NCBI GenBank assembly: GCA_021513695.1
Contig: CP084166.1
Location: 320,001-384,000, forward strand
Direction of reading: 5' to 3'
DNA: 64,000 bases
Source: Candidatus Heimdallarchaeum aukensis
GTDB taxonomy: Archaea > Asgardarchaeota > Heimdallarchaeia > Heimdallarchaeales > Heimdallarchaeaceae
This document shows, one piece after another, positions 3,236-62,277 of this stretch (position 1 is its first letter; every line of letters begins with the position of its first letter). A program made the position numbers and the translations under genes. The notes under the pieces were generated by a model. It saw nothing but the letters and a program-made list of their open reading frames with translations, was not told the DNA's origin and ran no database searches.

Positions 3236-3281
3236 ATAACACAAAAATTAAAAAAAATATATTAAGTTTTTTAAAAAACAA

Positions 3282-7086: not shown

Positions 7087-7097
7087 GAGGAAAAAAA

Positions 7098-29103: not shown

Positions 29104-29212
29104 GGTTATAAGAAGGTAGGTACATATTAAAAAGCTTATGTAATACTCAAGTTTTATGGTTATTGTCGGAATTTTAGATATTTGTAGAAATGATGACCTT
29201 TAAAAACAAGCA

Positions 29213-41034: not shown

Positions 41035-41035
41035 T

Positions 41036-42316
41036 TCATTTGTTTTCTTCTTTTTTTTCATTTGCAAATAGTAAAGGAATAATGGCAGTTAAAACAAGTA
41101 TTCCTGCAACGATAAACATTAGTGGAGGAGGAATATAGCCTATTTGACCAAATTCATCAATAAAGGTTTTACCCGAAGTTTTTGCTATAGCACTTCCTAT
41201 AAAAGGTCCTATTCCCATTGCTGCAAGTACAGTGAATACAATATAATAGCCAGAAAATTGTCCTCTCTTATCTTCAGGATAGAGATCTCTTATCCAAGTT
41301 ACTGAAGAAATGTCCCACATTGCCATAGCAAACATCATTCCGACACCAGAAAGTCCCAGAAAAATTAACTTTTCTGATAATCCAAAGAAAATCAATGAAA
41401 TCGATTCTATAAAAACAGAAATTATTGCTATCTTCTTTCTTCCTATTTTGTCTACAATAAAACCGACAGGAATAGAAATGAGTATAGCAATTAAAATTGC
41501 TACAAATATTAAGAGAGACGATTCTTCTAAACCTAGTTCAAGATGTTTTTGCATGTAAATAATCAAGAATGGGAAAAAGACATTAAAAGCAATTCCCCAT
41601 AACATTGCAGCGCTTAAGGTGAGGAAAACATCTCTATTATTTCTTAATTCAGATATACTAAAAGTAGTTTTAATTGTTTCCCAATATTTTTTCTCTGGTT
41701 TTTTTATCTCTACTTCTGGTGCAATAATTGCTCCTATTATTCCTAATACACCCACAGAAGCTCCAATTATGTAAAAGAAATCATAATAACCTAAAGATTC
41801 TATAATAAAGCCTGAAGCCCCATAGACCACCAATGTAGCAAATAAAACAGTGAATTCCATTACTGCACTTATTCTTCCTCGATTTTTTAGTGTGGTTACA
41901 TCAGTAGCATAAGCTTTTAGTGCAGCATCATTTGACATGCTTCCAAAAAAAGTCATTATACAATCAAAAACAATTGCTAAACTAGCAGCTAAAATTACTG
42001 GACGAACAAGTCCTGCAAGAGGAAATATGGCAGTAGTTAAAGCCCAAAAGGGTAAACCAATAAGAAAGAAAATTTTTCTTTTACCAATTTTATCAGAAAG
42101 AGCCCCAAAAAAAATAGATGTAAAAGTTGCAGTAAGAGCACTAGCAGCAACCATTATTGAAATATATAATGGATCAGGAATGATAACATTATACAAAAAT
42201 ACATTGAAATATTGATTTTCAACTCCCCAAGCCAGTTCACCAGCGAAACTAAGTAAAGTTATAGCTATAGTTGTTTTAGCAGAAATTTTCATATCAGAAA
42301 AAAAATAAAACAACAA
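41036..42316 (-). CDS. major facilitator superfamily transporter
   Basis: 12 TM helices, MFS-type loop motifs (GALSDKIGKRK, DKIGRKK) in both halves. Confidence 0.7.
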   Translation of the reverse strand: MLFYFFSDMKISAKTTIAITLLSFAGELAWGVENQYFNVFLYNVIIPDPLYISIMVAASALTATFTSIFFGALSDKIGKRKIFFLIGLPFWALTTAIFPLAGLVRPVILAASLAIVFDCIMTFFGSMSNDAALKAYATDVTTLKNRGRISAVMEFTVLFATLVVYGASGFIIESLGYYDFFYIIGASVGVLGIIGAIIAPEVEIKKPEKKYWETIKTTFSISELRNNRDVFLTLSAAMLWGIAFNVFFPFLIIYMQKHLELGLEESSLLIFVAILIAILISIPVGFIVDKIGRKKIAIISVFIESISLIFFGLSEKLIFLGLSGVGMMFAMAMWDISSVTWIRDLYPEDKRGQFSGYYIVFTVLAAMGIGPFIGSAIAKTSGKTFIDEFGQIGYIPPPLMFIVAGILVLTAIIPLLFANEKKEENK

Positions 42317-42342
42317 TTAAATTTTGTCACAAAAAAAGAGAT

Positions 42343-44343
42343 TTAGATTTTTTCATTTATCCAAATTTGCATCTCTGTTTTTCCTCTGTTTTCCCACAAA
42401 AAGTAAGGTGTCGCAATTATTTTTTCTCCAGATTGGTTTCTTGTTTCAATTATTTTTATATTACCAAAGTTTGGAAATAGAAAATCTTTAACTTCTATCT
42501 GTGAAGTATCTATTGTTTCAAAAGGAATCTTGGAATTAGGATTGTCGATTTTTTCAAAACAATAAACTAATGGACCATAACTCAAAGCTATTTTTCTTCT
42601 ATTTTCTTTTATTTTCTTATGTGAATAAAGTTTGGTTACATTCATTTGAAATTCTAAGTCTATTTCTGTTTTGTTAGAAAAGTTATCTTCAAGGGTAACA
42701 TATTCTGAAAGAAGAGGGTTGTATCCTGAAGCGGTAGTAATAGTTTCACTATTAGTTTGGTGATTAAATTCTTTGTTTTGACCATTAATACTAATCTTCA
42801 TTTTTTTTGTCCAAGAAGGAAAGCGAAAATGTAATTTAGAAAGTTTATAATTTGATTTTTTAAAATTGATAAACAACTTTACCTTTCCTTCCCAAGGAAA
42901 ATAAGAAACAAGAGAAAGATTGATTTCTTGGCCAATTTTTGAGCTGTTACTTATGTATTGATGTATCCATAATTCTGATTCTTTCATAGAGTAAATATAA
43001 TCTCCAACTTTAGCAATTGTTCTTGAATAGTTGGAAGGGCAACAAGCAGTTCGATACCAGTTTTGTCTTTCATAATTGCCATTTGAAATCATTGGATTGT
43101 AATAAAAATACTTTGTTCCATCGATTGAGGATGAAACTAAAATTGCATTGTATAATTGCCATTCAATCAAATCAGAATAACATGCTTTTCCAGTTAATTT
43201 TAACAACTCATTAGACCAGAAAACACTTCCAATGGCAGCACAAGTTTCACAATAGGCATATTTTTGAGGAAGTTCATAGGCTTTACCAAAACCTTCAAGC
43301 ATAGGTAGAGAACCTATTCCTCCTGTTGCATACATATATTTTGTAACCATTTCTTTCCAGATTCTCTCAAGTTGTTGTAGGTAAATTTTATTTTCTAATT
43401 CTTGTTGTAGTAGAGCAGCAGCTGTCATAAAATAAGTAAATCGCACACTATGACCTACAGGATGTTTCATTTTAAAAAAAGGTTTGTTATGTTGCATATA
43501 TTTACCTGTGAGAGCACTATAATAAAATCTAAATTTAAGAAAAGGAATATCATCAATTTTTAAGTCACTCATAACTTTTTTTTCATATTCCTTATTATGA
43601 GTTAATTTTTCTATCTGCTTGTTAACTTCTTTTGTTCGCTCTTCTACAGATAAAAATTCCTTTATCATTTGAATAAAGAATAGTTTTTTTCTTCCTCTGT
43701 TTTCAATAAATTTTTTAGCTAAATTTAGGTATCTCCTATCATTATTAACTCTAAATAACTTTATTAAAGCAATTTCAATTTCTTGATGCCCAGGAACTTC
43801 TATTTTTTTTGAATTAAAAAATTGGATATAGATCGCTTCAGCTAGTTTTTCAGCAATCTGGAGAAAAGTTTTTTCTCTTGTAGTTTGATAATGTTCAACT
43901 GCAGCTTCAATTAAATGTCCTGCAGTATATAGTTCGTGTTCAATTAAGAGATTCTTCCACTTTGTTTCAGGAAAGAAGAATTGATTGTATGTAAAAATAT
44001 ACCCATCTTCATCTTGAGCTTCTTGAAGGAGTTTAATATATAGATCTATTAATTCTTTTAATTTCGTGTTTTTTCTTGCTGAAGAGATCCTAATTGCAGC
44101 TTCTGACCACTTATGGGCGTCTGAGTCCCAGTAAGAAAGACCTTTTCTGTATCCCTCTTTGTTCTTTGCAATAATTCTGAAATTGTCAATACAACCACTT
44201 TTTTCTAACATTTTCCATTGGTGAAAAATAGCTTTTTCTGCATTGACATCCTGTTTATTTTTCCAAAAACCGTTGTTAATTTTAATTTGTGAATATGGAA
44301 TAGATATGAAAAAAATGTTAGGAGAATTAGTATTTTCGCTCAT
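42343..44343 (-). CDS. glycoside hydrolase family 127 (beta-L-arabinofuranosidase-like, DUF1680)
   Basis: Zinc-site pattern of GH127: E-x-C (YCETCAAIG) and downstream Cys-Cys (RTACCPSNY). ORF track start 44403 overlaps mtd; internal ATG (MSENTNS) at 44343 removes overlap. Confidence 0.6.
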   Translation of the reverse strand: MSENTNSPNIFFISIPYSQIKINNGFWKNKQDVNAEKAIFHQWKMLEKSGCIDNFRIIAKNKEGYRKGLSYWDSDAHKWSEAAIRISSARKNTKLKELIDLYIKLLQEAQDEDGYIFTYNQFFFPETKWKNLLIEHELYTAGHLIEAAVEHYQTTREKTFLQIAEKLAEAIYIQFFNSKKIEVPGHQEIEIALIKLFRVNNDRRYLNLAKKFIENRGRKKLFFIQMIKEFLSVEERTKEVNKQIEKLTHNKEYEKKVMSDLKIDDIPFLKFRFYYSALTGKYMQHNKPFFKMKHPVGHSVRFTYFMTAAALLQQELENKIYLQQLERIWKEMVTKYMYATGGIGSLPMLEGFGKAYELPQKYAYCETCAAIGSVFWSNELLKLTGKACYSDLIEWQLYNAILVSSSIDGTKYFYYNPMISNGNYERQNWYRTACCPSNYSRTIAKVGDYIYSMKESELWIHQYISNSSKIGQEINLSLVSYFPWEGKVKLFINFKKSNYKLSKLHFRFPSWTKKMKISINGQNKEFNHQTNSETITTASGYNPLLSEYVTLEDNFSNKTEIDLEFQMNVTKLYSHKKIKENRRKIALSYGPLVYCFEKIDNPNSKIPFETIDTSQIEVKDFLFPNFGNIKIIETRNQSGEKIIATPYFLWENRGKTEMQIWINEKI

Positions 44344-44356
44344 TTTCTCCCCGATG

Positions 44357-45193
44357 TTATTTTGCTTCTTCAAAGAAGTTTTCTTTGTAAAGTCTTTTTC
44401 CATCTGCTTTATTATGTGGTTGCCTTACAAGCATATTTGTACTTTTTTCTAGTTCTCTTATCTCATCAGCAAGTAAACCAGCTTGTCTAACAATTTCATG
44501 TGCTGCTGCAAGGTATATTAATGATTTAGATTTATCTTTCTCTACATACAAACCTTTGATATCAAGTTTAGCTACTTTTGTTAACATTTCTAGAGCAGCG
44601 ACTGCTTTAGCTTTGGAGTAGTCGTTTTTGAAAGGATATGATTGAACAACTGTCATGCTTGATAGATTTCTTTTGGGTAACATCAGTTCTTTTCCTTCTT
44701 TTATTTGTTCAATTACATTATCTATTTCTTTGGTTATTAGTTCAAAAACACCAGCTGCACTAAGAACATTGATTACATAACCATTGAAAATTCCCATTTC
44801 TGTAGGATCTAGAAAATCTTTTTTTGCACCAATCATTGGATCAAAAGGAGCGATTAAATAACCTACACCTTCATTTCTCCATGATTCTCTTAGTTCTTTA
44901 TCAGCTTCGTCAGAGACAACAATGAGTGGATATTTTCCTTTTAATTCATTAACAAGCTTTTTGGGACCATCCAAATTAGCATTGGGAGAAACAACGACAA
45001 TTAAATCAGATTCTACATATTCTAGAAGTGAAAGGATTCGTTCTGCATCAGATGGAGAAAGCTTTGTAGAAGAGGATAAGACAGTTCCTTGAATGTCATC
45101 CCTACTTGCTCGTTCATCTAACATAATATCAACTAAAGTTGTTAGAGTAATATTTCCTATTTTTAAGAATGTGACCTTTACCATTTTTATCAC
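44357..45193 (-). CDS. mtd: F420-dependent methylenetetrahydromethanopterin dehydrogenase
   Basis: Full-length (~278 aa) collinear similarity to Mtd: LVDIMLDERASRDD, NEGVGYLIAPFDPMIGAKKDFLDPTEMGIFNGYVINVLSAAGVF, AKAVAALEML, LADEIRELEKSTNMLVRQPHNKADGK. Confidence 0.8.
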   Translation of the reverse strand: MIKMVKVTFLKIGNITLTTLVDIMLDERASRDDIQGTVLSSSTKLSPSDAERILSLLEYVESDLIVVVSPNANLDGPKKLVNELKGKYPLIVVSDEADKELRESWRNEGVGYLIAPFDPMIGAKKDFLDPTEMGIFNGYVINVLSAAGVFELITKEIDNVIEQIKEGKELMLPKRNLSSMTVVQSYPFKNDYSKAKAVAALEMLTKVAKLDIKGLYVEKDKSKSLIYLAAAHEIVRQAGLLADEIRELEKSTNMLVRQPHNKADGKRLYKENFFEEAK

Positions 45194-47891: not shown

Positions 47892-49877
47892 ATGAAAAGT
47901 GACAAAGATATAATGGGGTGTTTCTGGATGAATAATAAGAAACTATCAGTATTATATATTATAACATTTTTAGTTGTTTCCATGGCTTTTGGAAACAATT
48001 ACGGAATAAATGTTCAATCTGAAACCAGTTTGAATTCTTATCAAGCACTTCAAGCAGGAGATACCCTGTTATATGAAGTTTATAACTGGTTTGAAGATGA
48101 ATACAATCATTTACTCTATTTAGAACAAGAAACTCCAGATGTTTTCTCAGATAAATCATATGACAATTTCTTCTTTGAACAGATTGAGCTTCACTCATTT
48201 GTAGTTACTGGAGCTGCTGATCCTACATACCTTACAGCAAATGAAACAATGTCATCATATCCAAAGACTAATTATAATTATCATGAATATTGGCACTACG
48301 ATTATAGTCAAAACAAATGGGTAAGTGATTGGGTAGATGAATATAGTTTTGAAGATCCTCCAAAGAGTGATGTATTTTTCGATATCAGTTTTGATGTATA
48401 TCAGGATACCTTGAACCTAGATTTAGGTTTTTGGTTTTATGAAGCAGTATATGTTGAAAATTACAATCAAACCTACATAATCAATGGTGTTCCATTTGAA
48501 ATAAATATTACTCACTACAGTGTTTATCATGAATATACTTCTTCTTGGGAAGACGGATTTTATGATCTTCCTCTGTATGTAGAGCAAAATAATACCAATC
48601 AAATTGATTATTACATTGACACTGATACAGGATTTTTGATCGAATATGAAGAGTTTAACACTTTTGAAGAAAAAAGATGGGTAGATGATTATAGCAGTGA
48701 ACTACAAACCCATGTAATATTAAATGATACATTGTACAATGAAAATTACTTTAATTGGAAATTGGTAGGAGCAAATTGTCAATATGCACCATTAGCAGAA
48801 GTAGATTTGCCTTATATAGTGAACTATTATGATGTTTCGTTTTTAACCATAGAAAATGATACAGACTATGTTGTATTACCTTTAGAGCTTTATACATCCT
48901 CCAATAATTTAACAGCAGAAATATCTCTTGTTAATTGGGACATGGATGGACCTAATGTTACATTGTATGACAGAGTAGAAAATCTAACAAATGGATATTG
49001 GGAATATTGGATACCAGTTACAGAGTTTGAATATGTTGGTCCATACTATTACTATGATGTTTTAGTAACTCTATATGATGGATACAATGTTTCACATAAT
49101 TCAACATGGCATATAGGACTACAAGACAATAGAGTAATCATACCTGATTGGCCATCTTGGTATGAAGGACCAGACTACATTGAAGTAGGAGAATGGGAGT
49201 TCTGGGATCAACCCTACGATGTTTATTCTGATACTTATTGGTTTGTTGATATTTACAGATATACAGATGACCCAATGTATCCAATGGAATTCATTGATCA
49301 CTGGGAAGGATATCAGAATGGAACATTTTGGCTACATCATCGTGAAGAACCTGAAGGAGAATATCAATATGAAATTGTATTCTGGGACCAAAGCGGTGCT
49401 TATATCAATATGACTGTTACAGTTAAAGTAGTTAGTGGTTCGACTTCTCCAGAAGATACCGATCCTCCTGTTATTACTGGTGAAGGGCCAGACATTTACA
49501 TCAAAGAAGGAGAAGATAAAACTCTAACTTATAAGATTACAGATGAAAACCCTGACCATGTTATGGTTAAGAGGAACGGTACTGTTATTATAGATGAAGA
49601 CATGACAAGTTCTCCATACTACATTGATATAGACCTCTCAACTTTAGGTGAAGGAACTTACATATTTAGTATTGATGCTTGGGATATTTATGACAATCAT
49701 AATATCTGGGACATTACTGTCTATGTTTCTTCCAGTTCTTCTGACACAAATGATACTTCACCCACAGATGATACTGGAACAAATACTTTCGATTTAGATG
49801 CTCCTAATGGATTAATTGTTGGTATAAGTCTATTTTCTGTTAGTGCTTTAGTAGTTTTACTAAAGAAAAAACGCTAA
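47892..49877 (+). CDS. acidic, Trp/Tyr/Asp/Glu-rich surface protein with C-terminal TM anchor
   Basis: Signal peptide, pI clearly acidic, repeated YD/WxD segments, C-terminal TM + LKKKR. Confidence 0.45.
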   Translation: MKSDKDIMGCFWMNNKKLSVLYIITFLVVSMAFGNNYGINVQSETSLNSYQALQAGDTLLYEVYNWFEDEYNHLLYLEQETPDVFSDKSYDNFFFEQIELHSFVVTGAADPTYLTANETMSSYPKTNYNYHEYWHYDYSQNKWVSDWVDEYSFEDPPKSDVFFDISFDVYQDTLNLDLGFWFYEAVYVENYNQTYIINGVPFEINITHYSVYHEYTSSWEDGFYDLPLYVEQNNTNQIDYYIDTDTGFLIEYEEFNTFEEKRWVDDYSSELQTHVILNDTLYNENYFNWKLVGANCQYAPLAEVDLPYIVNYYDVSFLTIENDTDYVVLPLELYTSSNNLTAEISLVNWDMDGPNVTLYDRVENLTNGYWEYWIPVTEFEYVGPYYYYDVLVTLYDGYNVSHNSTWHIGLQDNRVIIPDWPSWYEGPDYIEVGEWEFWDQPYDVYSDTYWFVDIYRYTDDPMYPMEFIDHWEGYQNGTFWLHHREEPEGEYQYEIVFWDQSGAYINMTVTVKVVSGSTSPEDTDPPVITGEGPDIYIKEGEDKTLTYKITDENPDHVMVKRNGTVIIDEDMTSSPYYIDIDLSTLGEGTYIFSIDAWDIYDNHNIWDITVYVSSSSSDTNDTSPTDDTGTNTFDLDAPNGLIVGISLFSVSALVVLLKKKR

Positions 49878-51955: not shown

Positions 51956-52675
51956 TTAATTAGGAAGAAAAAGATTAGCAATCCAAATATAAATCAAAAC
52001 AAAAGAAATTGAAAACCAAATAATAATTCTAAACCAATTTTCTTTTCTAAATTCAACCTTTTTATAATGTGATCTTTTAGATAATCCAAAACCCTTGAAA
52101 TATAAAGCTTGAGCCAAAAATTCAGAACGATAAAGAACAGAGGCTATAAAAATAGCTAGAATTTTAGGTAACCATTTGAAAATTGTTCCCTTTGTTTCTC
52201 TTAATCTTATTGTTTCAAAAGTTTCTTCTGCGTCTTTAATTATTCGTGGAGAAAGAGTTAACACTAAAGAAGGAAGTAAAGCAATCTTAGAGGGAAAATG
52301 TAAATTTTCTAGTGCTCTTGTTAATTCTGAAGGATTAGTTTTGGAAAAAAAGAAAACAAAACTTAATCCCCCATTTAGAATTCTAGTTATTGTTAAAATA
52401 CTGAAATACAATCCTGAAAAAATATAGGTCATTCCTCCTAAAAGAATTAATAGAGGAAATATAGCAATAATAATATTAAAAGCGCCGATACTATTTCCAA
52501 AAATGATGTTTTCGAACACGATTATTGCCAACATTATTACTTGAACAGCAATATTTGAAGAGAAAACGAATGAAAACTGAATTATTAAAATAATTATGCT
52601 TAGTATAGGGTTGAATATAATACCTTCAGATTGAAAAATTATTCCGCTGTAAATTCTGTTTAATAAGTAAGACAT
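51956..52675 (-). CDS. ecfT: ECF transporter transmembrane (T) component EcfT/CbiQ
   Basis: ~240 aa, 5-6 TM, CbiQ-like, immediately downstream of fused ECF ATPase. Confidence 0.65.
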   Translation of the reverse strand: MSYLLNRIYSGIIFQSEGIIFNPILSIIILIIQFSFVFSSNIAVQVIMLAIIVFENIIFGNSIGAFNIIIAIFPLLILLGGMTYIFSGLYFSILTITRILNGGLSFVFFFSKTNPSELTRALENLHFPSKIALLPSLVLTLSPRIIKDAEETFETIRLRETKGTIFKWLPKILAIFIASVLYRSEFLAQALYFKGFGLSKRSHYKKVEFRKENWFRIIIWFSISFVLIYIWIANLFLPN

Positions 52676-54337
52676 CTAGTTTCCTCCTTGATCAAAAACC
52701 CCATTAAGAGCTAATTCTGAAATTTCTTCAACAGTAATGATATGGGGAAGTTCAGCTTTGAAACTTTCTTCTAATTCTAAAATAAACCTAACTAACTGAT
52801 TAGGAACGAGTTTTGTTTTTTTCTCTAATTCGTATAAAATTTTCTGTGGAGTTCCCTTTAGTGCGATTTTTCTCTCTTCAATTACAACTAATTTATCAAA
52901 AAAAGGTAGAATACGTTGATCGTTTGTAGCAATAATTACAATCTTTCCTTCTTTTTTAGCTCTTTCAATACAAGTGTATAATAGATTTCTCCCTTCTTCG
53001 TCTAATCCAATTGTAGGTTCATCCAGAAGGATGAATCGTTTGTCAGATAGAAAAGCTGTATATATTGCCAGTATTCTTCTTTCTCCTTCACTCATATGAT
53101 AAAGCTTTCTAGAGATTAAGTGCCAAAAACCGAATTTAGATAACTCTTCTTTAACAATATCCAAATCTACTTTTGTTTTCTTTATATCATCTAGAGGAGT
53201 AGGGCCCATTAAAAATAATTTAGCATTTTCAGGAACATAAGCTACATACTTACTTGTGTGTCTTAAACCCTTTATCTTGTTTCCAAATAGGAGTACTTTA
53301 CCTTTATTTGGTTTGAGAATACCAGAAATCAACCGAAGTAGAGTACTCTTCCCACTTCCATTTATTCCGAGCAACCCTATAATGTTTCCAGGATAGATTT
53401 CGAAATTTATATTTTCCAAAATAGGTCTCCTGTTATACCTAAACGAAACATCTTCAACGTTTAGAACGATTTCATGTTTATCTTTTTTTAATTCTTCTTT
53501 CTTCTCTTGAAATCTATTTTTTAGCTTTAGAATCTTCTCCACTAGTTCTTTTTTCCCTTCTTCTTTTTCTAAACTTTGTTCAACTTTAAGCTTTTCTGCA
53601 AGCAAATAAATTTCTGGTAAGTCAACTCCAGTTAGTTCAGATATTAATTCATGTGATTTTCCTGATTTAATAATTGTCCCATTCTCTATGAAATATATCT
53701 TATCTGCTAAAGAAAACAAATAATCTAATCTATGCTCAAAAACTATAACAAGATGGCCCTTTTCTGCTAGTTTCTTTAATGTTTCTGCAATTTTTATCTC
53801 TGAAGCGGGGTCTATTCTAGCCATTGGCTCATCCAATACTAGAATTTTGGGATAGCAAATTAAAGATAAACAGAGTTCAACTCTTTGAATTTCTCCAGAA
53901 CTAAGTTCAGTCATTATTCTATTTTTTAGATGATCAACTTCTGTGACTTTTACAGTTTCTGAAATTCTTTCGTGAATGATTTCACGCGGAAAAGATAGAT
54001 TTTCCAAAGGAAAAGCTATTTCTTCTTCTACAAGCATGTTAGTTATAAAATCTGAAGGATACTGTGGAATGTAGCCTACAGTTCTGATAAGTTCAAATCT
54101 TGTTAAATTTTCAGTTGGTACTCCATTAATTAGTATTTTTCCTTTAATTTCTGCAGGAATAAACTTAGGAATCAGACCCAAAATAGCTTGTGCAAGAGTG
54201 CTCTTTCCACTTCCACTTTTACCAGCGAAAACAACAAGCTGTCCCTTCTCTAAACTAAAACTAATATTTTTAAGATTCCACTTGCTACTTGTTTTATATT
54301 TAACTGAAAGATTTTCTAACTCTAGCACTCGCACCAA
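52676..54337 (-). CDS. ecfA: ECF transporter fused tandem ATPase (EcfA-EcfA')
   Basis: Two ABC modules: Walker A GKSGSGKST and GINGSGKST, signatures LSSGEIQRV and MSEGERRIL, Walker B ILVLDEP / ILLDEP. ORF track start 54457 overlaps S-component by 80 nt through a T-rich stretch; TTG/GTG start near 54337 (..VRVLELENLSVKY) more plausible. Confidence 0.75.
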   Translation of the reverse strand: MVRVLELENLSVKYKTSSKWNLKNISFSLEKGQLVVFAGKSGSGKSTLAQAILGLIPKFIPAEIKGKILINGVPTENLTRFELIRTVGYIPQYPSDFITNMLVEEEIAFPLENLSFPREIIHERISETVKVTEVDHLKNRIMTELSSGEIQRVELCLSLICYPKILVLDEPMARIDPASEIKIAETLKKLAEKGHLVIVFEHRLDYLFSLADKIYFIENGTIIKSGKSHELISELTGVDLPEIYLLAEKLKVEQSLEKEEGKKELVEKILKLKNRFQEKKEELKKDKHEIVLNVEDVSFRYNRRPILENINFEIYPGNIIGLLGINGSGKSTLLRLISGILKPNKGKVLLFGNKIKGLRHTSKYVAYVPENAKLFLMGPTPLDDIKKTKVDLDIVKEELSKFGFWHLISRKLYHMSEGERRILAIYTAFLSDKRFILLDEPTIGLDEEGRNLLYTCIERAKKEGKIVIIATNDQRILPFFDKLVVIEERKIALKGTPQKILYELEKKTKLVPNQLVRFILELEESFKAELPHIITVEEISELALNGVFDQGGN

Positions 54338-54377
54338 CCCAATAAATAAAGAAAGAAAAAAAAAGATTTGTATAGGG

Positions 54378-55145
54378 CTAGATTTCGTCTTCTTCATTTG
54401 AGAGGAAGCCAATTTTATGTAGGTAAGAAACAATTGGAATTGCAATTGCTGTTCCAAAAACTACTTGTCCAAAGTTAAATGGGATCTCTACTAAAGCAGC
54501 GCCTATACCAAAAAGTAACCACTCATAAAGGAAATAACCTACAACGATGATTAATCCACCAGAAACGCAAGAAATAATCATCTTTCCTTTCTCTCCCCAC
54601 AATAGGGTTGAAACCCAGATGAGGGTTATTAACAGTAAAGAAATAATTAATATTACATATCCAGGAAATGTAAAAGTTAATTCCAGTCCTCCAAGTCCAA
54701 GAAGAGAAAGACCTCCCTCGATATTATTGTTAAACAACAATGCGGATGCAGTTATCATAAGAGCTGAAATTATAGAAACAAATGTTATCTGAATCTTTTT
54801 TGAAAATTTGCGTAAGAGCATAAATAGTAACCCAACAGTAAAACCTTCAGCTGATTTTAAAACGAATGTTGCCGGAGCAAAGATAGCATATCCTAAAACT
54901 ATATCCGCAAGAGCAGCTCCTACTCCTCCAGCGATCATCCCTACTATGGGCCCACCTACTAATGCTGCTACGTAGATAAATGCTTCTCCTAAATTAAAAA
55001 AACCTTCAGAAGTTAATGCTAAATAGAAAATAGATGTTGCTAGAAATACTAATGTTGTAAAAGAAGCTGTTGTTGCTAACCCTCTTAAACTCGCTATTTC
55101 TGCAAAATCTTTTTTTATTGAATACCTCTCTATCATTTTTATCAC
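54378..55145 (-). CDS. ECF transporter substrate-specific (S) component
   Basis: 255 aa small multi-TM protein with Gly-rich helices (GGPIVGMIAGGVGAALADI) directly upstream of ecfAA'-ecfT; substrate unknown. Confidence 0.5.
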   Translation of the reverse strand: MIKMIERYSIKKDFAEIASLRGLATTASFTTLVFLATSIFYLALTSEGFFNLGEAFIYVAALVGGPIVGMIAGGVGAALADIVLGYAIFAPATFVLKSAEGFTVGLLFMLLRKFSKKIQITFVSIISALMITASALLFNNNIEGGLSLLGLGGLELTFTFPGYVILIISLLLITLIWVSTLLWGEKGKMIISCVSGGLIIVVGYFLYEWLLFGIGAALVEIPFNFGQVVFGTAIAIPIVSYLHKIGFLSNEEDEI

Positions 55146-55227
55146 TATTCAAGTTTCAACTTTAATATTCAAGATTCAACTTGTATACTCCTTTAAAAAA
55201 TTTGTGGTATATCGTTAATGAGAAAAA
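55146..55227. repeat. imperfect 16-nt direct repeat in ECF operon leader
   Basis: ATTCAAGTTTCAACTT (55147-55162) and ATTCAAGATTCAACTT (55167-55182), spaced 20 nt, between panB stop and ECF S-component start. Confidence 0.4.
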
Positions 55228-56031
55228 CTAATCATATCGTTGTTTTTCAGTAGGAAAAGAGCCACTTTTCACTTCTTCATGATATTTTTTTACAGCATTA
55301 GAAATTATTTCCTTGATGTCAACATATTGCTTAATAAACTTGGGTTTAACTTGAAAATTCAACCCTAAAATATCATCAATTACTAAAACTTGACCGTCAC
55401 AATATTCTCCTGCTCCAATTCCAATAGTAGGTATGGTTAAACTTTCAGTTATTTTCTTTGCAAGTTTCCATGGAATGGATTCCAAAACTATAGCAAAAAC
55501 TCCGGCTTCTTCTAGTAGTTGTGCATCTTCAAGAAGAATCTGTGCTTGTTTTTCTTCTCTTCCTTGAACTTTGAATCCACCAAAAATATTAACATACGTA
55601 GGAGTAAGTCCAATATGTCCTAACACAGGGATACCAATTCGAATAATTTTTTTAATATCTTCAATTCTTTCCCTTCCCCCTTCAAGTTTTACTGCTTCTG
55701 CATTTCCCTCTTTAACTAGTTTATGGGCATTTCTAGCTGTTTCAGAGGGATTAATACCATATGTTCCAAAAGGGAGATCTCCAATCAGTAAAGCTCTATT
55801 TACTGCTCTTGATACAGCTTGAGTGAGCATAATAGTATTTTCTAAAGTTACTTTCAAGGTGTTATTATGACCTAAAATTGTCATTCCTAGCGAATCTCCA
55901 ACAAGAATAGAATCAATTCCTGCATCATCAACAATTTTAGCTATTGGATATGTATAAGATGTAAGCATAGTTATCTTTTCTTTGTCTTCTTTCATTCTCT
56001 GAAAATCTTTTACTGTAACTTTATCTTGCAT
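55228..56031 (-). CDS. panB: 3-methyl-2-oxobutanoate hydroxymethyltransferase (ketopantoate hydroxymethyltransferase)
   Basis: KITMLTSYTYPIAKIVDDAGIDSILVGDSLGMTILGHNNTLKVTLENTIMLTQAVSRA collinear with PanB core; ~267 aa. Confidence 0.8.
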   Translation of the reverse strand: MQDKVTVKDFQRMKEDKEKITMLTSYTYPIAKIVDDAGIDSILVGDSLGMTILGHNNTLKVTLENTIMLTQAVSRAVNRALLIGDLPFGTYGINPSETARNAHKLVKEGNAEAVKLEGGRERIEDIKKIIRIGIPVLGHIGLTPTYVNIFGGFKVQGREEKQAQILLEDAQLLEEAGVFAIVLESIPWKLAKKITESLTIPTIGIGAGEYCDGQVLVIDDILGLNFQVKPKFIKQYVDIKEIISNAVKKYHEEVKSGSFPTEKQRYD

Positions 56032-56100
56032 TATTATCAGTCTACGATTTGAATTCTACTATAAATTTTTTCGCTGTATCGAGAAATTTATAGAAAAAAA

Positions 56101-56817
56101 CTATTGTCTCTCTTTACTAAGAAGTAGATAGTTTATTATCATTAGAAACAAAGCAAAAGCTTGATATCCAAGGATATAAGGTAAAATAATAAAATCCTCT
56201 GCAATGATTATTCCAGTAGTAAAAAGAGCCATTGCTAAAATCAAAAATAGAAAAAACCACAGAATGATATTTCTATTTTCTTTCTTTAAACCCATTGCTA
56301 TCCAAAGCATGAGAAAAGAAAGAATAAAGGGTTGGTAAAAACCATTAATTGGCGAAATGGCTAAACTAGGAGCAAAGATAGCAACTAAATAAAAAAGAGA
56401 ACTAAAGAAGAATAAAAGAATAAGAGAGAGTTTTCTTACAATTCTAGGATAGGTATTTAGTTTTTTTTTCCAATTGACTTTTCTTGAAAATTTGTGAATT
56501 ATCTTGTTACTATCCTTAAAAAAACTGTATTTTTCTATGTTATTCATTTTTAAATTATTAATTATAGACAAAATTAAAGGAAGAATAAAAAGAGTGTAAG
56601 GTACATAAATAAGATAAGGGAACCAGTAAATCGCTGGGTCTTTTATTTCTTGGTCAACAGTATCCAAGTGAGATAACACATAACCAGATTGAACAATTGT
56701 ACCAATGGTTATTAATATTAAACTCACAAACATAAAGTAAAGCAAGCTTATCCATATTTTATAACGTTGTTCAGTGAAGAGAACTTTTATTCCAGACCTT
56801 TTTCTTTCCAGATTCAT
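56101..56817 (-). CDS. hypothetical polytopic membrane protein
   Basis: ~7 TM helices, no family recognised; located between PPS and panB. Confidence 0.35.
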   Translation of the reverse strand: MNLERKRSGIKVLFTEQRYKIWISLLYFMFVSLILITIGTIVQSGYVLSHLDTVDQEIKDPAIYWFPYLIYVPYTLFILPLILSIINNLKMNNIEKYSFFKDSNKIIHKFSRKVNWKKKLNTYPRIVRKLSLILLFFFSSLFYLVAIFAPSLAISPINGFYQPFILSFLMLWIAMGLKKENRNIILWFFLFLILAMALFTTGIIIAEDFIILPYILGYQAFALFLMIINYLLLSKERQ

Positions 56818-56861
56818 TATTTTACTTTACTTTTTTAAATATATATAGTTTCTTAATTTTT

Positions 56862-57647
56862 TTACTTTGAATCTTTGAATTTTTTTAATTTCTCAGCATC
56901 GAAACTCTTTAATCTTTCACTTATAAAAGTAAGCGATGTGTGTAATGAATCAAAATTTTCAAAATTGCTGATTATTTCTTGAAGATTTAGAGAATCTTCT
57001 TTTTTCATCTCTTGAGCCATTTTTATCATTTCAGGAATTGCTCTAATCACATTATTTACAATAGTTATATTTGACCATAAAGAAGTGCGAGAAAGAGGAT
57101 TTAGATCAATACTTATTACAGTTTTACTTAACTTTCTTAGAGCCATGGTTCTATCTCCATCTTCCAATGGTACCATTACAACATCAGCAGAAAAGATACC
57201 TCTTTTATCTACAATTCTTCTTAAATGTGAAAGTTCTTTTATTTCTGTTTGATAATTAGGATCTAAACCGTATATTTTTTCTGCACCGTTTTCTCTTAAT
57301 ACTTTTTCTAACGCTTTCATCCTTTTTTCGCTGCGATAGAATAAATTAACCTCTAACTTTGAATTTGTTTCTTCTGCTAGTTTTATTATTTCTCTTGGAC
57401 ATAAAGCTGCGACATTTCCATTAACGCTAATAACAGGATTTTTCGCTAAAAGAAGGCTTGCGACTGCAGCTTTTTCCTGTTCTAAAGCAAAAGAAGGAGT
57501 TTTTTCTCCTATTAAGTAATCAAATGCTTCTCCTCTACCATGTGCAATTAATCCAGCTTCTGCGACAATGTTAGAGTGCATTCCATCAATAATTAATTCT
57601 CTGACTCTAAGTGATTCTGCTCTCGGATGATCTTCAGGAATCTTCAT
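56862..57647 (-). CDS. 4-phosphopantoate--beta-alanine ligase (archaeal phosphopantothenate synthetase, PPS)
   Basis: Near full-length collinearity with archaeal PPS (COG1701): AGLIAHGRGEAFDYLIGE, NPVISVNGNVAAL, VVMVPLEDGDRT, ISIDLNPLSRT. Confidence 0.85.
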   Translation of the reverse strand: MKIPEDHPRAESLRVRELIIDGMHSNIVAEAGLIAHGRGEAFDYLIGEKTPSFALEQEKAAVASLLLAKNPVISVNGNVAALCPREIIKLAEETNSKLEVNLFYRSEKRMKALEKVLRENGAEKIYGLDPNYQTEIKELSHLRRIVDKRGIFSADVVMVPLEDGDRTMALRKLSKTVISIDLNPLSRTSLWSNITIVNNVIRAIPEMIKMAQEMKKEDSLNLQEIISNFENFDSLHTSLTFISERLKSFDAEKLKKFKDSK

Positions 57648-57738
57648 TAAAATAAGGACTTTTTTTCATATTTATATTGATTTAGATAAAATAAGAAAAT
57701 AGAAAAAGAAAATAAAAAGAAAATAAAAAAAGGAGAAT

Positions 57739-59916
57739 TTAATTTTTTCTTCTTCTGAATAAGAAAGTTGTCATAAATACAGTACTCAAAACAATGAATG
57801 CTCCAAAACCAGGAGTATTAGTAGGTTGAGTGTCAGTTGGTTCTGTTGGTTCTGTTGGTTCTGTAGGCTCTGTAGGCTCTATGGGTTGAGGATTAGGTTC
57901 AAAGTATGTTTTGAATTCTGGATCGTGGTTTATTTCTTTTCCATCCCAAACAGGATAGTTGATTATAATCAAATCTTTTCTGTATAACCAGTTTAGAGTA
58001 GTTTCTTGCTTTTCTGAATCTGTCATTACTTGACCTATATCATCGCTTTCACTTTCAAATTCTCCTACTTCTGTTGAATTAGAAAATGTTTTCTGTCCTG
58101 TTAAATAAACCAAATTTAGCACTGTAGTATTTGTATTATGTGTTGAACCTTCTATCGAATATTCTAGTTTCGAACCACCTAAACTAATGTCAATAAGCGC
58201 TGTGTCATCACTGTATTCTATTGATACCTCTGTTGTGGTTGTTGGAACAGAAGAACCTATTCCTTCTTCATCAGTTTTAGCCGTTACATCTTCTACTGTT
58301 AGCATTTCACTTACTTGATAAGTCGCAAGTGACAGACCCTCCATGCTATTCTTAAGTGTGGAATCTGTTATTCCTCCAAAGACACTTGTTGTAGCTAAAC
58401 TTGCTTCTCCAGTATCTAAGTTAACTGTATAAGAATAATCATAACTTATATCCATTGGATCTGTTGTTACTGTAGTATCTGAAGTGTTATACCATAAAAC
58501 TGGATAATCATTATAATCAATACCCCAACTAAAAGTAACACTACCATCATCGTTTTCTACAGGATCAGTCCATCTAGGAGTATAGTTAATTTCAGCGTCT
58601 ATATCTCCTACTTCTTCCACCACATACTTTTCTCCAACTTCAGTATTGTTAATGTTGATATTGTTATATATTCCTGCACCAGGAGCATAAACAATACTAG
58701 TGTAATTGTTGGTAATGTTATAAGTTACAAAGTATTCATTCTTGTGAGCTTCTGGAAAACCGATATACTTAACCCAATCAATAGGATCATGCTTTACATT
58801 TCCACTATCGTCCAAATATACATCAAGTTGATTGTTGTAATTTCCATCATAGTAAGCTATCATTCTAGAAGGATTAAGTGTTCCCCATACAGCAAAATGG
58901 TCAATAGTTGCATTAGTTGATCTGCTAACAAAAGCTTGTACAACAGCTTGAGCTGTAGATCTACTTTGTAATCGCCCATAAGCTGTAAATTCAAAGCTTT
59001 GGTGACCTTGATCTGCAATTAGTTTAGGTAACATATTTCTTGGATAATAATTATAAGGTACATTTCCTCCATAGTCGTTAAATTCTGGGTCATCTGAAGT
59101 TATTGTAACATTGTGGAGATAAAATCTAAAGAACCCTATTTCCATCTTAAAGACTTCTGCATATTCAATACTAGATTTAATACAACCAAAGTAATTTAGA
59201 GCGATATTACTTCCATCCGTTATAATTACATTATAACCAGTCATTGTTGCATTATATTCAAAACCATAGGCCATATATCCACCTATTATATTTCTTGCAT
59301 AAAAAGTAGAGTTCACTGTTACTTGGAAAGTCTGTGTTGTTATCTGAATAAACATTGCTACAGGTATAATAGCTACTAAATGATAAAACTTGAATAGACC
59401 ATATTCGTCAACACTGTCGATAAATTCTATAAGAGTGCTGTTTACAAAGGATTGGCCAAGATACTCTTTTTCAGTTGATAGAAAAAGTACTTCATTTGGT
59501 AGATCTGAAGTTACATTTAGACTAACATTATAATGCGCACTTCTAGCCCAAATGCGTGGCATAAGATCGTTGTTAACGTAATCTACCATAGTTTCATTAT
59601 TTACTAAAACCTTAAACTCTGATTCACTTCCATTTCCCCAAACACGGAAGTCAACTATTAAATAAATAGCATCTACTAACTCATAACCAGTCACTAAATC
59701 TAAAGGACCAGTATACATCGTAGTTTCTTTATATTCTTCATCTACAAGCATATAATCAAAATAACTATAAGAGCCTGATTCACTGAAAGTTTTTACTTCG
59801 TGAGAATAGTAGATACCATTAATTTCATTAGTTTCTCCCACTGAAGGGGGAGTTAGCGAAACAACCGAGAAAATAACCAAAGATATAACTAAAAAAGTTA
59901 ATTTCTGTTTGTTCAT
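57739..59916 (-). CDS. secreted surface protein with Thr/Pro/Glu linker and PGF-CTERM-like C-terminal sorting signal
   Basis: Signal peptide; C-terminus PTEPTEPTEPTEPTDTQPTNTPGFGAFIVLSTVFMTTFLFRRRKN = Thr-rich linker, PGF tripeptide, TM helix, Arg-rich tail. Confidence 0.5.
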   Translation of the reverse strand: MNKQKLTFLVISLVIFSVVSLTPPSVGETNEINGIYYSHEVKTFSESGSYSYFDYMLVDEEYKETTMYTGPLDLVTGYELVDAIYLIVDFRVWGNGSESEFKVLVNNETMVDYVNNDLMPRIWARSAHYNVSLNVTSDLPNEVLFLSTEKEYLGQSFVNSTLIEFIDSVDEYGLFKFYHLVAIIPVAMFIQITTQTFQVTVNSTFYARNIIGGYMAYGFEYNATMTGYNVIITDGSNIALNYFGCIKSSIEYAEVFKMEIGFFRFYLHNVTITSDDPEFNDYGGNVPYNYYPRNMLPKLIADQGHQSFEFTAYGRLQSRSTAQAVVQAFVSRSTNATIDHFAVWGTLNPSRMIAYYDGNYNNQLDVYLDDSGNVKHDPIDWVKYIGFPEAHKNEYFVTYNITNNYTSIVYAPGAGIYNNININNTEVGEKYVVEEVGDIDAEINYTPRWTDPVENDDGSVTFSWGIDYNDYPVLWYNTSDTTVTTDPMDISYDYSYTVNLDTGEASLATTSVFGGITDSTLKNSMEGLSLATYQVSEMLTVEDVTAKTDEEGIGSSVPTTTTEVSIEYSDDTALIDISLGGSKLEYSIEGSTHNTNTTVLNLVYLTGQKTFSNSTEVGEFESESDDIGQVMTDSEKQETTLNWLYRKDLIIINYPVWDGKEINHDPEFKTYFEPNPQPIEPTEPTEPTEPTEPTDTQPTNTPGFGAFIVLSTVFMTTFLFRRRKN

Positions 59917-60100
59917 ATATTATTATTTGCATCAAAATATAAAAGTATATTTTTCGAATTTTCTCGAATAATTTAAAATCATTGTTTTTTCTTTTATAAC
60001 CAATCTAACAATTTCTAAATAGAATGTAGATATTTTGTTAAAAAAAATTAATAACTTTCTTGTACTATTTATATTTCTTAAAATTTATATAACATAATGT

Positions 60101-61696
60101 TTGTTCTTTCCCATGAGTAATGAAAAAGGCAGTAAAATTAATCATTTGGTCGGAATAATACTTTACATTGGCATATTTACTTATTTTATCACTTCCTTAG
60201 TTTCTCTTATATTGCATTTTTCTGATTTAAAAGTTCATGGTTTTATCTTAAATCTATTTGCCTTACTTTTTGAAACACTTGGTCCTTTATATGCTGTTTA
60301 TTTTATGATACAATTAATTGACGGTATTCTAAATGTTGGAGAAATTAGTTATAATATTGATAAGATGACAGAATTTCCTAAAGTAACAGTTATTGTACCT
60401 ATTCACAATGTGAATCCTGCTGTTTTAAGGGATACATTATTGGGTTTCAAAAACCAAGATTACCCCAATTTTGAACTGTGGGTTGGTGATGACAGTACAG
60501 ATGTTAAATTACGTGAAGAATGTGAAAAAATTACAAAGGAAACAGGTTTTATTTACTTTTATAGAGAAAATGATCGTTTCAAAGCACATATGGTTAATAT
60601 GATTTTGGAACAACCTCAAGTCAAAGAGTCAAAATATGTTGCCTTTTTCGATGTCGATCACATTCCTGAACCAAATATTTTGAAAAAATTTGTAGCTATA
60701 TTAGAAGAGCATCCTGAATTCGTTTTTGTTCAAGGTAAATTCGGCTTTAGGAATGCGAAGAACTATCTTCATGTGTGGGAAGCTATGTCTCTCACACAGA
60801 TGTTTGCTAGCCAGAATGCAAGAAGAAAAACTGGTAATGTTCTCTTCTGTGGGAGTACAGCTTGTTTTAGAAGGGATATACTCAAAGGTTTACCAGAAGG
60901 GACTTTAACAGAGGATTATGATTTAACTATTAGACTCGCTTCTGAAGGTTACAGAGGATATTGGCTAGATGAGATAAGTTCAATGAGTTTGGTACCGGAA
61001 AATATAGGACATCAAATGTCACAGCTTAATAGATGGATGACTGGGCAAGCTGGAGCATTATCAGACCATGTTGGTAAGTTATTTAGAAGCAAAATGACTT
61101 TCAAACAAGCAATTGACTTTGTAGTTTCTTCTACTGTTGTGCTTGTAGCTACTTCATTCTATTTTTTAGGTATCTTTTATGCTCTGATTTATGCATTTAA
61201 AATACCTATCTATCGTGCATTAGGACTAGATGCTTTTTCGCTAGTAATAATGCCTATATTGACCTTTATTATTTACATCTCCACTCTAACAGCGACAACA
61301 ATATATACTGCAAAATCTGGTACTTATCCTTTAAGATGGTGGCACGTACCCTTCTTTTTGGCTTTTGGAGGGATGACAGCTCCTTTCTTAGTTTTTCCAG
61401 TAATTAAAGGACTATTTAGAAAAAATAAAATAGTTCCAGGAAAAACAAAATGGAATAAACAAGTACCTCTGATTCCATTGTCTATCTTCTTTTCATTACT
61501 TGGAATGGTTTTTATAGGTCTAACAACATCTTCAGTTTTAGATTTCTTATCAATTACAAATTGGTACGGATATAATTATTTCTTTATTTTATTTGGAGTA
61601 ATAGGCATTACGCTCGTGTTTGCTTTTCCATTTATAGTGATTTCTAAAATGATGTTTAAATCACAACACTATGAAGAAGTAATGATATATCATTAA
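60101..61696 (+). CDS. processive family-2 glycosyltransferase (cellulose/chitin-synthase-like membrane synthase)
   Basis: N-terminal TMs, GT-A domain with VIVPIHN, DDSTD, DxD-like FDVDHIP, and QLNRW (QxxRW) processivity motif, followed by C-terminal TM bundle. Confidence 0.7.
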   Translation: MFFPMSNEKGSKINHLVGIILYIGIFTYFITSLVSLILHFSDLKVHGFILNLFALLFETLGPLYAVYFMIQLIDGILNVGEISYNIDKMTEFPKVTVIVPIHNVNPAVLRDTLLGFKNQDYPNFELWVGDDSTDVKLREECEKITKETGFIYFYRENDRFKAHMVNMILEQPQVKESKYVAFFDVDHIPEPNILKKFVAILEEHPEFVFVQGKFGFRNAKNYLHVWEAMSLTQMFASQNARRKTGNVLFCGSTACFRRDILKGLPEGTLTEDYDLTIRLASEGYRGYWLDEISSMSLVPENIGHQMSQLNRWMTGQAGALSDHVGKLFRSKMTFKQAIDFVVSSTVVLVATSFYFLGIFYALIYAFKIPIYRALGLDAFSLVIMPILTFIIYISTLTATTIYTAKSGTYPLRWWHVPFFLAFGGMTAPFLVFPVIKGLFRKNKIVPGKTKWNKQVPLIPLSIFFSLLGMVFIGLTTSSVLDFLSITNWYGYNYFFILFGVIGITLVFAFPFIVISKMMFKSQHYEEVMIYH

Positions 61697-61707: not shown

Positions 61708-62277
61708 TTATCTTCTTCTTTTTCTTTTACTCTTTTTACTCTTTTTAATAGTTCTAAAAGCAATAATTAAAGACAGAATAGTAAAGATCAATCCAACAAT
61801 GGCATAAATAGGAAAGTTAGTGTCATAGTCACTTCCATATCGATCAATAAAGGTAAGATAAGAGACAAAACCCATAATGGTTGTACCTAAAATAAGTATG
61901 TCTGCAATGAATGCACCAATAGCTCCATGAATGAATAATAAAAGTAAAGCAGCTAGCAATAAATAAGGAATGATCAAAGTAAGTAATCCTTCTGTAGATA
62001 AATTGTTGTCGATATCTAAGAAACTTATTTCAACATCACTCACATAAAGAATGGCAAATAACTTTGTTCTATCAGTTAAAGCATCTCCTGCATATTCCCA
62101 TCTTCCATCTTCACTAAACCAGTTAAAGTTGTAAAAAGCTATTTCAAATTCATTATCATGAACAGATACTGCTCCTAGAGGAGTCATCATATATGTTGTA
62201 TCAAAACTATCAACATGATGAATACCAATAGGCATAATAAAAAGTATCAAAATAAAAACTACATTAAGAGCTTTCAT
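61708..62277 (-). CDS. small secreted protein with C-terminal TM anchor and poly-basic tail
   Basis: Signal peptide, ~100-aa ectodomain, TM helix, KKSKKSKRKRRR tail. Confidence 0.35.
   Translation of the reverse strand: MKALNVVFILILFIMPIGIHHVDSFDTTYMMTPLGAVSVHDNEFEIAFYNFNWFSEDGRWEYAGDALTDRTKLFAILYVSDVEISFLDIDNNLSTEGLLTLIIPYLLLAALLLLFIHGAIGAFIADILILGTTIMGFVSYLTFIDRYGSDYDTNFPIYAIVGLIFTILSLIIAFRTIKKSKKSKRKRRR

Follow-up and report, generated by a model that had tools for sequence, protein, structure and literature searches.

Among the protein-sorting systems close to the one considered here is that of archaeosortase A (ArtA) and its PGF-CTERM substrates in Haloferax and methanogens, in which N-glycosylated surface proteins carry a Thr-rich linker beside the anchor, the tripeptide Pro-Gly-Phe, a transmembrane helix and a basic tail. 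ArtA-dependent maturation consists of proteolytic cleavage and lipid anchoring and requires PssA and PssD (PMC7157517). For Asgard archaea, experimentally almost nothing is known about how the cell surface is built and anchored, and the lineage archaeosortase is so far just a database model: NCBIfam NF045528, the 'heimdallarchaeosortase', an equivalog of 199 positions with a cutoff of 130 bits, which constitutes a separate, shorter family than ArtA and whose accession neighbours that of the Heimdall-CTERM signal model, NF045529. According to the curators, models of sorting enzymes and signals are built together whenever possible (10.1101/2023.06.07.544157); on the strength of this stated practice, the names and the neighbouring accessions, we take NF045528 to be the probable partner of NF045529. 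In the literature that we searched, there was no paper or experiment on Heimdall-CTERM or heimdallarchaeosortase, no mention of Loki-CTERM and no report of archaeosortases in Asgard archaea, and no exosortase or archaeosortase entry appears in the supplementary files of the paper on the Heimdallarchaeum genome.

The window, that is, the whole 64-kb stretch of Heimdallarchaeaceae DNA analyzed here, was read together with 14 kb of flanking sequence (~78 kb in all). It had been initially annotated as encoding a 725-aa surface protein that ends in a linker, PGF, a transmembrane helix and a basic tail, and translation of the open reading frame at 57739..59916 (minus strand) bears this out, the C-terminus being ...PIEPTEPTEPTEPTEPTDTQPTNT-PGF-GAFIVLSTVFMTTFLF-RRRKN. 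The gene and its parts are as follows.

57739..59916, minus strand: whole gene of the secreted, C-terminally anchored surface protein, 725 aa (ORF list, translation)
59836..59916, minus strand: Sec-type signal peptide, residues 1-27, MNKQK / LTFLVISLVIFSVVSL / TPPSVG (sequence, hydropathy, predicted structure)
57901..59835, minus strand: all-beta ectodomain, residues 28-672, with 16 N-X-S/T sequons
57814..57900, minus strand: Thr/Pro/Glu-rich disordered linker, residues 673-701 (Tandem Repeats Finder, pLDDT, composition)
57805..57813, minus strand: signature tripeptide Pro702-Gly703-Phe704 (model scores, homologue conservation)
57757..57804, minus strand: C-terminal transmembrane helix GAFIVLSTVFMTTFLF, residues 705-720 (hydropathy, predicted structures)
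57739..57756, minus strand: basic cytoplasmic tail RRRKN, residues 721-725 (57742-57756), and TAA stop codon

The signal peptide has its hydropathy peak from residues 3-9 onward and forms a helix over residues 3-19 in the predicted structure; it contains no Cys and hence no lipobox, and cleavage would be expected after residue 27. The ectodomain matches no Pfam family; one of its domains, ~220 residues long, has a galactose-mutarotase-like beta-supersandwich fold. A model computed from a five-sequence alignment was poor (pLDDT 51), and the better one, compared with the PDB using Foldseek, retrieved beta-barrel matches without meaning (TM-score <0.11). The product is a Sec-exported all-beta surface protein and is probably N-glycosylated. 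The linker region is predicted to be disordered (pLDDT <50 over residues 679-709) and is repetitive: Tandem Repeats Finder reports a 9-nt period at 57836-57880 with 4.2-4.3 copies and 93% matches. The 9-nt period noted earlier thus stands, although the in-frame repeats at 57835-57879 make up five EPT units rather than four (GAGCCTACA twice, GAACCAACA twice and GAACCAACT once). Ser, Thr and Pro together account for a mean of 51% of the 30 residues that precede PGF in the homologues, and the Thr/Pro/Glu-rich linker is a candidate O-glycosylated stalk. In both predicted structures, the C-terminal helix spans residues 705-724, the hydropathy window lies at residue 702, and alignment of five orthologues shows R721 to be invariant. 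Logan contig SRR15988954_191 encodes an identical 725-aa product. Its closest relatives carry the name Candidatus Heimdallarchaeaceae archaeon, with Kariarchaeaceae and Hodarchaeota as sources of more distant family members.

Comparison with curated sorting-signal models placed the tail closest to Heimdall-CTERM. NF045529 was the top C-terminal model: tails of 43 and 45 residues, scored in isolation, exceed its cutoff of 24 bits with 25.6 and 25.4 (E=1.1e-5 for the tail alone), and the match covers all 26 model positions and ends at the last residue of the protein. Shared with this signal class are also the tripartite layout after a Ser/Thr/Pro-rich linker, the Heimdallarchaeia lineage and the presence on an exported protein with a signal peptide. 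In silico, the model proved sensitive to each residue of PGF and to the basic tail: the tail score of 25.6 bits fell to 20.6 with P>A (-5.0 bits), 21.0 with G>A (-4.6 bits), 14.2 with F>A (-11.4 bits) and 12.7 with RRRK>SSSS (-12.9 bits), and the PGF>AAA replacement abolished the match. What sets the protein apart from catalogued members is that, scored whole, it reaches 19.0 bits (E=0.0014), below the cutoff of 24, and that its orthologues, including one with 93% identity, are deposited in GenBank as 'hypothetical protein'. We class the tail as a new, sub-threshold member of a signal class already curated by NCBI, on a protein family lacking a Pfam model; that the tail passes while the whole protein fails illustrates how, in AT-rich genomes, real instances fall below a curated cutoff. 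Loki-CTERM (NF033507) was the second-best sorting-signal model, but the tail (18.1 bits; 7.2 for the whole protein) stays below its cutoff of 19.9 and the host belongs to Heimdallarchaeaceae rather than being a Lokiarchaeon.

On balance, we consider it probable, without being assured, that the last 26 residues of this Sec-exported surface protein constitute the tripartite PGF-type sorting signal that Heimdallarchaeia use, Heimdall-CTERM, processed by an archaeosortase-family enzyme. By analogy with ArtA and PGF-CTERM, the signal peptide would drive export, after which the protein would be retained in the membrane by its C-terminal helix and Arg/Lys tail, PGF facing outward. An enzyme of the archaeosortase family that is itself embedded in the membrane, namely the heimdallarchaeosortase of NF045528, might then cleave at or near PGF and transfer the new C-terminus to a lipid, so that the mature protein, standing on its Thr/Pro stalk, would be lipid-anchored instead of helix-anchored. 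For this particular protein, cleavage, lipidation and glycosylation are predictions.

The initial annotation read the same arrangement as that of a PGF-CTERM substrate of ArtA, as described in haloarchaea and methanogens. Part of this holds, in that an archaeosortase-type PGF tripartite signal does sit on a secreted protein, with a tripeptide and overall layout identical to those of PGF-CTERM. The tail also yields weak matches, when scored alone, to the ArtA-dependent S-layer models NF041431 (17.5 bits) and TIGR04216 (12.5 bits); in these models and NF041335, which have cutoffs of 400-1100 bits, the last ~40 residues alone align, at 9-18 bits. A strict ArtA substrate is nevertheless very unlikely. 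The TIGR04126-type scan that had been proposed as a check gave the tail only 13.1 bits, short of the 24.5 required, with no match listed for the whole protein, and at E<=0.01, TIGR04126 matches none of 58 family tails, as opposed to 26 of 58 for Heimdall-CTERM. The low score is due to the AT-rich composition of the helix, which is Phe/Thr/Ile-rich and not Ala/Leu/Val-rich as in PGF-CTERM; placing Ala in the T/F/M-rich half of the helix raises TIGR04126 from 13.1 to 22.4 bits, a result that counts for the ArtA reading. Moreover, the haloarchaeal and methanogen frame does not fit a host from another phylum, a Heimdallarchaeaceae archaeon whose lineage has its own NCBIfam signal and enzyme models. 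Since NF045528 exists for this lineage, one would expect the enzyme to be a relative within the archaeosortase family, of the same superfamily (TIGR04178 signature), and not ArtA itself.

In searches for the enzyme, three artificial sequences, one exosortase A-like and two archaeosortase A-like, scored 395, 338 and 285 bits on curated models and served as probes only. Ten further artificial probes resembling small archaeosortases all matched the TIGR04178 signature and none exceeded 25 bits on NF045528, for which the best artificial probe, a Methanosarcina-type ArtA-like sequence, gave 30.6 bits. A protein database search with the probe profile returned 120 proteins, all real archaeosortase A from Methanosarcinales and their relatives and none from Asgard archaea. 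On NF045528, real ArtA proteins cross-match through the catalytic core at just 19.6-26.8 bits, against the cutoff of 130, a further point against an ArtA system in this lineage. ArtA profiles that score all 120 real proteins at 116 bits or more found no ArtA-like frame in the ~78 kb, the profile of the 120 giving nothing above 7 bits, and no archaeosortase-family ORF emerged in the window and its flanks from lists of Pfam matches, from local profiles or from scanning with NCBIfam. Nor was there one within ~10 kb of the gene in four orthologous neighborhoods. On the preferred reading, a heimdallarchaeosortase would be encoded elsewhere in the genome of the host.

Conservation within the protein family provides a separate line of evidence. 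A profile search of a protein library of 50%-identity representatives found 80 family proteins, of which the 64 with a C-terminal helix and basic tail, mostly cluster representatives at 50% identity and with named members from Heimdallarchaeaceae, Kariarchaeaceae and Hodarchaeota, were counted as anchored homologues. PGF occupies the same place in 28 of these 64, with PGY in 3 and xGF in 9. The local pattern is [AVLTI]-P-G-F-[EGT], the first K/R following 13-20 residues on; a consensus built from 31 full-length members has PGF-x16-RxRK at its end, and PGF is the majority consensus in both the 31-sequence set and the set of 58 tails. Of these tails, 17 match Loki-CTERM at E<=0.01, which evidently makes Loki-CTERM another PGF-like signal of Asgard archaea. 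Two further searches added little: a metagenome scan with a 12-member family alignment yielded one 2.9-kb fragment, and a protein database search with the 31-member profile recovered only four already-known proteins, Thr/Ser-rich words having swamped the candidate list.

These data bear directly on the possibility that PGF is a meaningless chance tripeptide, for which the earlier annotation would have taken a lack of other PGF-CTERM proteins, together with that of an archaeosortase homologue in the genome, as grounds. Indeed, no second PGF tail exists in the ~78 kb, where it occurs in one of seven C-terminally anchored proteins, and PGF is missing in three mid-distance orthologues. At the level of the family, though, the tripeptide is widespread, P702 is invariant in 12 of 12 aligned homologues, and the tail match to NF045529 is far from random expectation by its E-value; we regard chance as refuted by this conservation and give it hardly any credence.

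More serious is the reading in which the C-terminus is a plain type-I membrane anchor, an uncleaved stop-transfer helix with a basic tail, and PGF a structural helix-capping or interface motif. In line with this, all six other surface proteins previously reported to have a C-terminal helix and basic tail without PGF are present in the window, each with a signal peptide.

1613-3244, minus strand: signal-peptide protein with C-terminal helix and basic tail, no PGF
3598-4998, minus strand: signal-peptide protein with C-terminal helix and basic tail, no PGF
19229-22300, minus strand: signal-peptide protein with C-terminal helix and basic tail, no PGF
34214-37321, plus strand: signal-peptide protein with C-terminal helix and basic tail, no PGF
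47892-49877, plus strand: signal-peptide protein with C-terminal helix and basic tail, no PGF
61708-62277, minus strand: small protein with four hydrophobic segments, signal peptide and C-terminal helix/basic tail, no PGF

Beside them, the 725-aa protein was correctly recognized as having the only PGF-type tail, although its best model is Heimdall-CTERM and not that of an ArtA substrate. A plain anchor is also what one might expect from the three next orthologues (46-54% identity), which have lost G-F and retained Pro along with the helix and basic tail (motif region TPFAV, IPISL and APWSL) and are not matched by NF045529; PGF is therefore dispensable in that orthologue group. The sub-cutoff score of the whole protein and the lack of a sortase gene in the ~78 kb read point the same way. 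Yet helix capping does not explain why P-G-F recurs exactly in 28 of the 64 homologues at below 50% identity, nor the fixed distance to the basic cluster, nor why a curated lineage-wide C-terminal model should reward exactly these residues, nor that the lineage has an archaeosortase model of its own. We thus hold a plain anchor to be a credible but rather unlikely explanation and retain the Heimdall-CTERM sorting signal as the preferred one, for which the natural loss of G-F in the orthologues offers a ready comparison on the need for the motif in processing.

As a single instance of a catalogued signal type, the tail leaves current understanding unchanged; with this gene, however, the lineage enzyme gains a tangible and conserved candidate substrate. 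Beyond this, the putative S-layer proteins KTGHC1_P6247 and KTGSC1_P0196 of cultured Hodarchaeales are N-glycosylated, reportedly conserved across many Asgard lineages and described as pore-forming homotetramers (10.1101/2025.02.26.640444). The family studied here likewise abounds in conserved sequons and has a Hodarchaeota member. One could speculate that this Pfam-less, all-beta, sequon-rich family of ~700-800 residues (Heimdallarchaeaceae, Kariarchaeaceae, Hodarchaeales), ancestrally ending in PGF, is a major S-layer-type envelope glycoprotein of Heimdallarchaeia, lipid-anchored by heimdallarchaeosortase and possibly of the same family as the Hodarchaeales proteins, but we consider this a long shot.

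The surroundings of the gene are variable, with no synteny among the orthologue neighborhoods beyond the closest pairs. A functional link to the adjacent GT2 glycosyltransferase was considered and rejected, because this neighbor is retained in the 93% orthologue alone. Two elements flank the coding sequence.

57648..57738, minus strand: intergenic oligo-T tracts directly past the stop codon on the coding strand (sequence; Tandem Repeats Finder rows at 57701-57732)
59937..59943, minus strand: TATA-like TTTATAT, 21-27 nt 5' of the ATG (sequence)

Judging from their sequence and position, the oligo-T run is likely an archaeal transcription terminator and TTTATAT a possible promoter for a leaderless or short-leader transcript.

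The C-terminus of the 725-aa surface protein (ORF 57739-59916, minus strand) is a real and functional-looking feature, and its tail is best explained as a Heimdall-CTERM signal of the PGF type. At its N-terminus the protein has a typical Sec signal peptide with no lipobox, and the product ends exactly as the initial annotation described, with a linker, the PGF tripeptide, a helix and a basic tail:

57814-57900 (-): Thr/Pro/Glu linker, residues 673-701
57805-57813 (-): Pro702-Gly703-Phe704
directly after PGF (-): hydrophobic stretch of 16 residues, GAFIVLSTVFMTTFLF
C-terminal end of the ORF (-): RRRKN, then a TAA stop

In the linker, Tandem Repeats Finder detects a period of 9 nt at 57836-57880. 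Rather than the four tandem 9-nt units first proposed, the in-frame reading gives five EPT units (57835-57879), perfect at the protein level. The 93% identical orthologue has the diverged PTEQTEPTETTVPT at the same place, so the array would have undergone slippage or homogenisation recently.

Scored over its whole length against NCBIfam, the protein has as its best and only meaningful match Heimdall-CTERM (NF045529; 19.0 bits, E=0.0014; residues 700-725, model positions 1-26 of 26), slightly below the annotation cutoff of 24. The last 43 residues taken alone score 25.6 bits on this model, as compared with 18.1 bits on Loki-CTERM (NF033507, cutoff 19.9) and 13.1 bits on PGF-CTERM (TIGR04126, cutoff 24.5). 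Hence, the earlier proposal of a PGF-CTERM-like substrate of archaeosortase A was right as to the kind of signal and wrong as to membership; with none of the 58 family tails matching PGF-CTERM at E<=0.01, we reject that assignment. Using the Heimdall-CTERM model as an oracle, we scored tails mutated in silico:

unmutated tail: 25.6 bits
P>A: 20.6 bits
G>A: 21.0 bits
F>A: 14.2 bits
PGF>AAA: no match
RRRK>SSSS: 12.7 bits

These losses indicate that the model itself describes a signal of P-G-F, helix and basic tail. Placing alanines in the Thr/Phe/Met-rich half of the helix raised the PGF-CTERM score from 13.1 to 22.4 bits; thus, the haloarchaeal/methanogen model fails mostly on the composition that the helix has in an AT-rich genome (G+C of the window, 30.6%).

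The protein has only four close relatives; the two with names belong to Candidatus Heimdallarchaeaceae archaea, where their annotation is "hypothetical protein". The identical protein is encoded by a Logan contig of 115.9 kb (SRR15988954) and by another contig of >1 Mb. In the three orthologues with 46-54% identity, Pro, helix and basic tail are retained, the motif regions read TPFAV, IPISL and APWSL, and the Heimdall-CTERM model does not match the tails. Taken alone, this loss of G-F counts against function, and since close orthologues do without G-F, cleavage and lipidation of the tail are the main point of doubt. A family profile searched against 1.84 billion cluster representatives found 80 members, 30 of them at E<=1e-30 and most 700-800 residues long; the named ones belong to Kariarchaeaceae and Hodarchaeota, all as "hypothetical protein". 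Of the homologues, 64 end in a helix and a basic tail, and in these the helix starts with PGF in 28, PGY in 3 and xGF in 9. The local pattern is [AVLTI]-P-G-F-[EGT], with 13-20 residues until the first Lys/Arg, and Ser/Thr/Pro make up 51% on average of the 30 residues upstream. The consensus is PGF whether it is built from 31 full-length members or from 58 tails, P702 is invariant across 12 aligned sequences, and Heimdall-CTERM matches 26 of the 58 tails at E<=0.01 (best E 7.7e-9). The survey thus makes PGF the majority state across a Heimdallarchaeia-wide family and probably the ancestral one, which has degenerated in one sub-branch adjoining the window protein. A fragment encoded on a 2.9-kb LAZR01 metagenome contig (LAZR01015767.1, 1-240) shares 40% identity with residues 599-681. 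It hints at a spread of the family, or of its C-terminal domain, beyond named Heimdallarchaeia, in agreement with Loki-CTERM matching 17 of the 58 tails (E<=0.01).

Presumably, the tail is processed by heimdallarchaeosortase, for which NCBIfam holds an equivalog model, NF045528 (199 positions, cutoff 130 bits). We found it via weak cross-hits of artificial archaeosortase-like sequences, which served only as probes and were checked against NCBIfam (archaeosortase A, 338 and 285 bits; exosortase A, 395 bits). Real archaeosortase A proteins confirm the cross-hits: with scores of 235-311 bits on TIGR04125, those from Methanococcoides burtonii, Methanosarcina siciliae and Methanothrix reach 19.6-26.8 bits on the NF045528 catalytic core. 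The NF045528 accession adjoins that of Heimdall-CTERM and, given that the curators build sorting-enzyme and signal models jointly whenever possible (10.1101/2023.06.07.544157), we infer that the two form a cognate pair. The system is already catalogued by NCBI, and neither model is mentioned in the searched literature. Other lineage-specific archaeosortase models are scarcely covered there: pacearchaeosortase (NF033505) has no mention, and the term archaeosortase H (NF041736) occurs a single time in each of four papers.

The genes called in the window, in 5.9 kb on its right and in 8.4 kb on its left include no PF09721 protein, and when ten of the window's uncharacterised or membrane proteins were scanned with NCBIfam, none belonged to the archaeosortase family. 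With local profiles, no ORF of the window, of its flanks or of the neighbourhoods of the four orthologues exceeded 11 bits, while the control probe profile gave at least 116 bits for 120 of 120 real archaeosortase A proteins. The search covered ~78 kb of this genome, a few percent if its size is assumed to be a few megabases, and ~64 kb of related genomes. In ArtA-type systems, a single enzyme serves many unlinked substrates, so its absence nearby is expected.

The window also encodes the six other surface proteins of the initial annotation, which end in a helix and a basic tail but lack PGF; each has a signal peptide:

1613-3244 (-)
3598-4998 (-)
19229-22300 (-)
34214-37321 (+)
47892-49877 (+)
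61708-62277 (-)

In each, a hydrophobic helix precedes a Lys/Arg tail, and no sorting motif could be recognised. Two are NosD/beta-helix proteins, another is a metallophosphatase carrying a CARDB domain, and a fourth is CARDB-like and 1023 aa long. Apparently, plain C-terminal helices serve most surface proteins of this organism, and a subset receives the PGF tail.

The 725-aa protein matches no Pfam family and has no sequence relative in the PDB. In a usable AlphaFold2 model from a 31-sequence alignment (pLDDT 81, pTM 0.62), the ectodomain (residues 30-672) is all-beta, the linker (679-704) is disordered and the terminal segment (705-724) is helical. The protein carries 16 N-X-S/T sequons versus 9.4 +/- 2.7 in shuffles, at least 8 of them invariant among five orthologues; the density is 2.2 per 100 residues, and 1.6-2.3 in five of the six non-PGF proteins, versus 0-1.0 in the window's cytoplasmic proteins. 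Fold and sequons of the ectodomain are consistent with a glycosylated surface protein.

Reading the sequence, we infer oligo-T tracts just beyond the TAA and, 21-27 nt upstream of the ATG, a TATA-like element. A divergent gene encodes a membrane-embedded, processive GT2 glycosyltransferase (60101-61696, +; 93.7 bits on the cellulose synthase catalytic-domain model, also PgaC/NodC-like); this arrangement is kept in the 93% orthologue only, the remaining orthologues having other gene contexts. Downstream (51956-57647, -) lie archaeal coenzyme A genes, 4-phosphopantoate-beta-alanine ligase (PF02006) and ketopantoate hydroxymethyltransferase, with a 238-aa membrane protein without family or Cys between them, followed by an ECF transporter module (S component, duplicated ATPase, CbiQ). 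Elsewhere, a five-gene cytoplasmic [NiFe]-hydrogenase cluster (5165-9720, +) comprises ferredoxin-like, FAD/NAD-binding, small (Oxidored_q6) and large (NiFeSe_Hases) subunits and the HycI maturation protease. At 28354-32078, a serine recombinase (Resolvase) gene adjoins three genes with Pfam domains matching the nickel-pincer cofactor pathway: ATP_bind_3 (LarE-like), Ni_insertion (LarC-like) and AIRC (LarB-like). In a sugar-use block (39271-45193), a GH2 glycosidase is accompanied by an MFS transporter and by a GH127 beta-L-arabinofuranosidase-like enzyme; after the block comes an MTD-domain protein (methylene-tetrahydromethanopterin dehydrogenase, PF01993), an unexpected neighbour for glycosidases.
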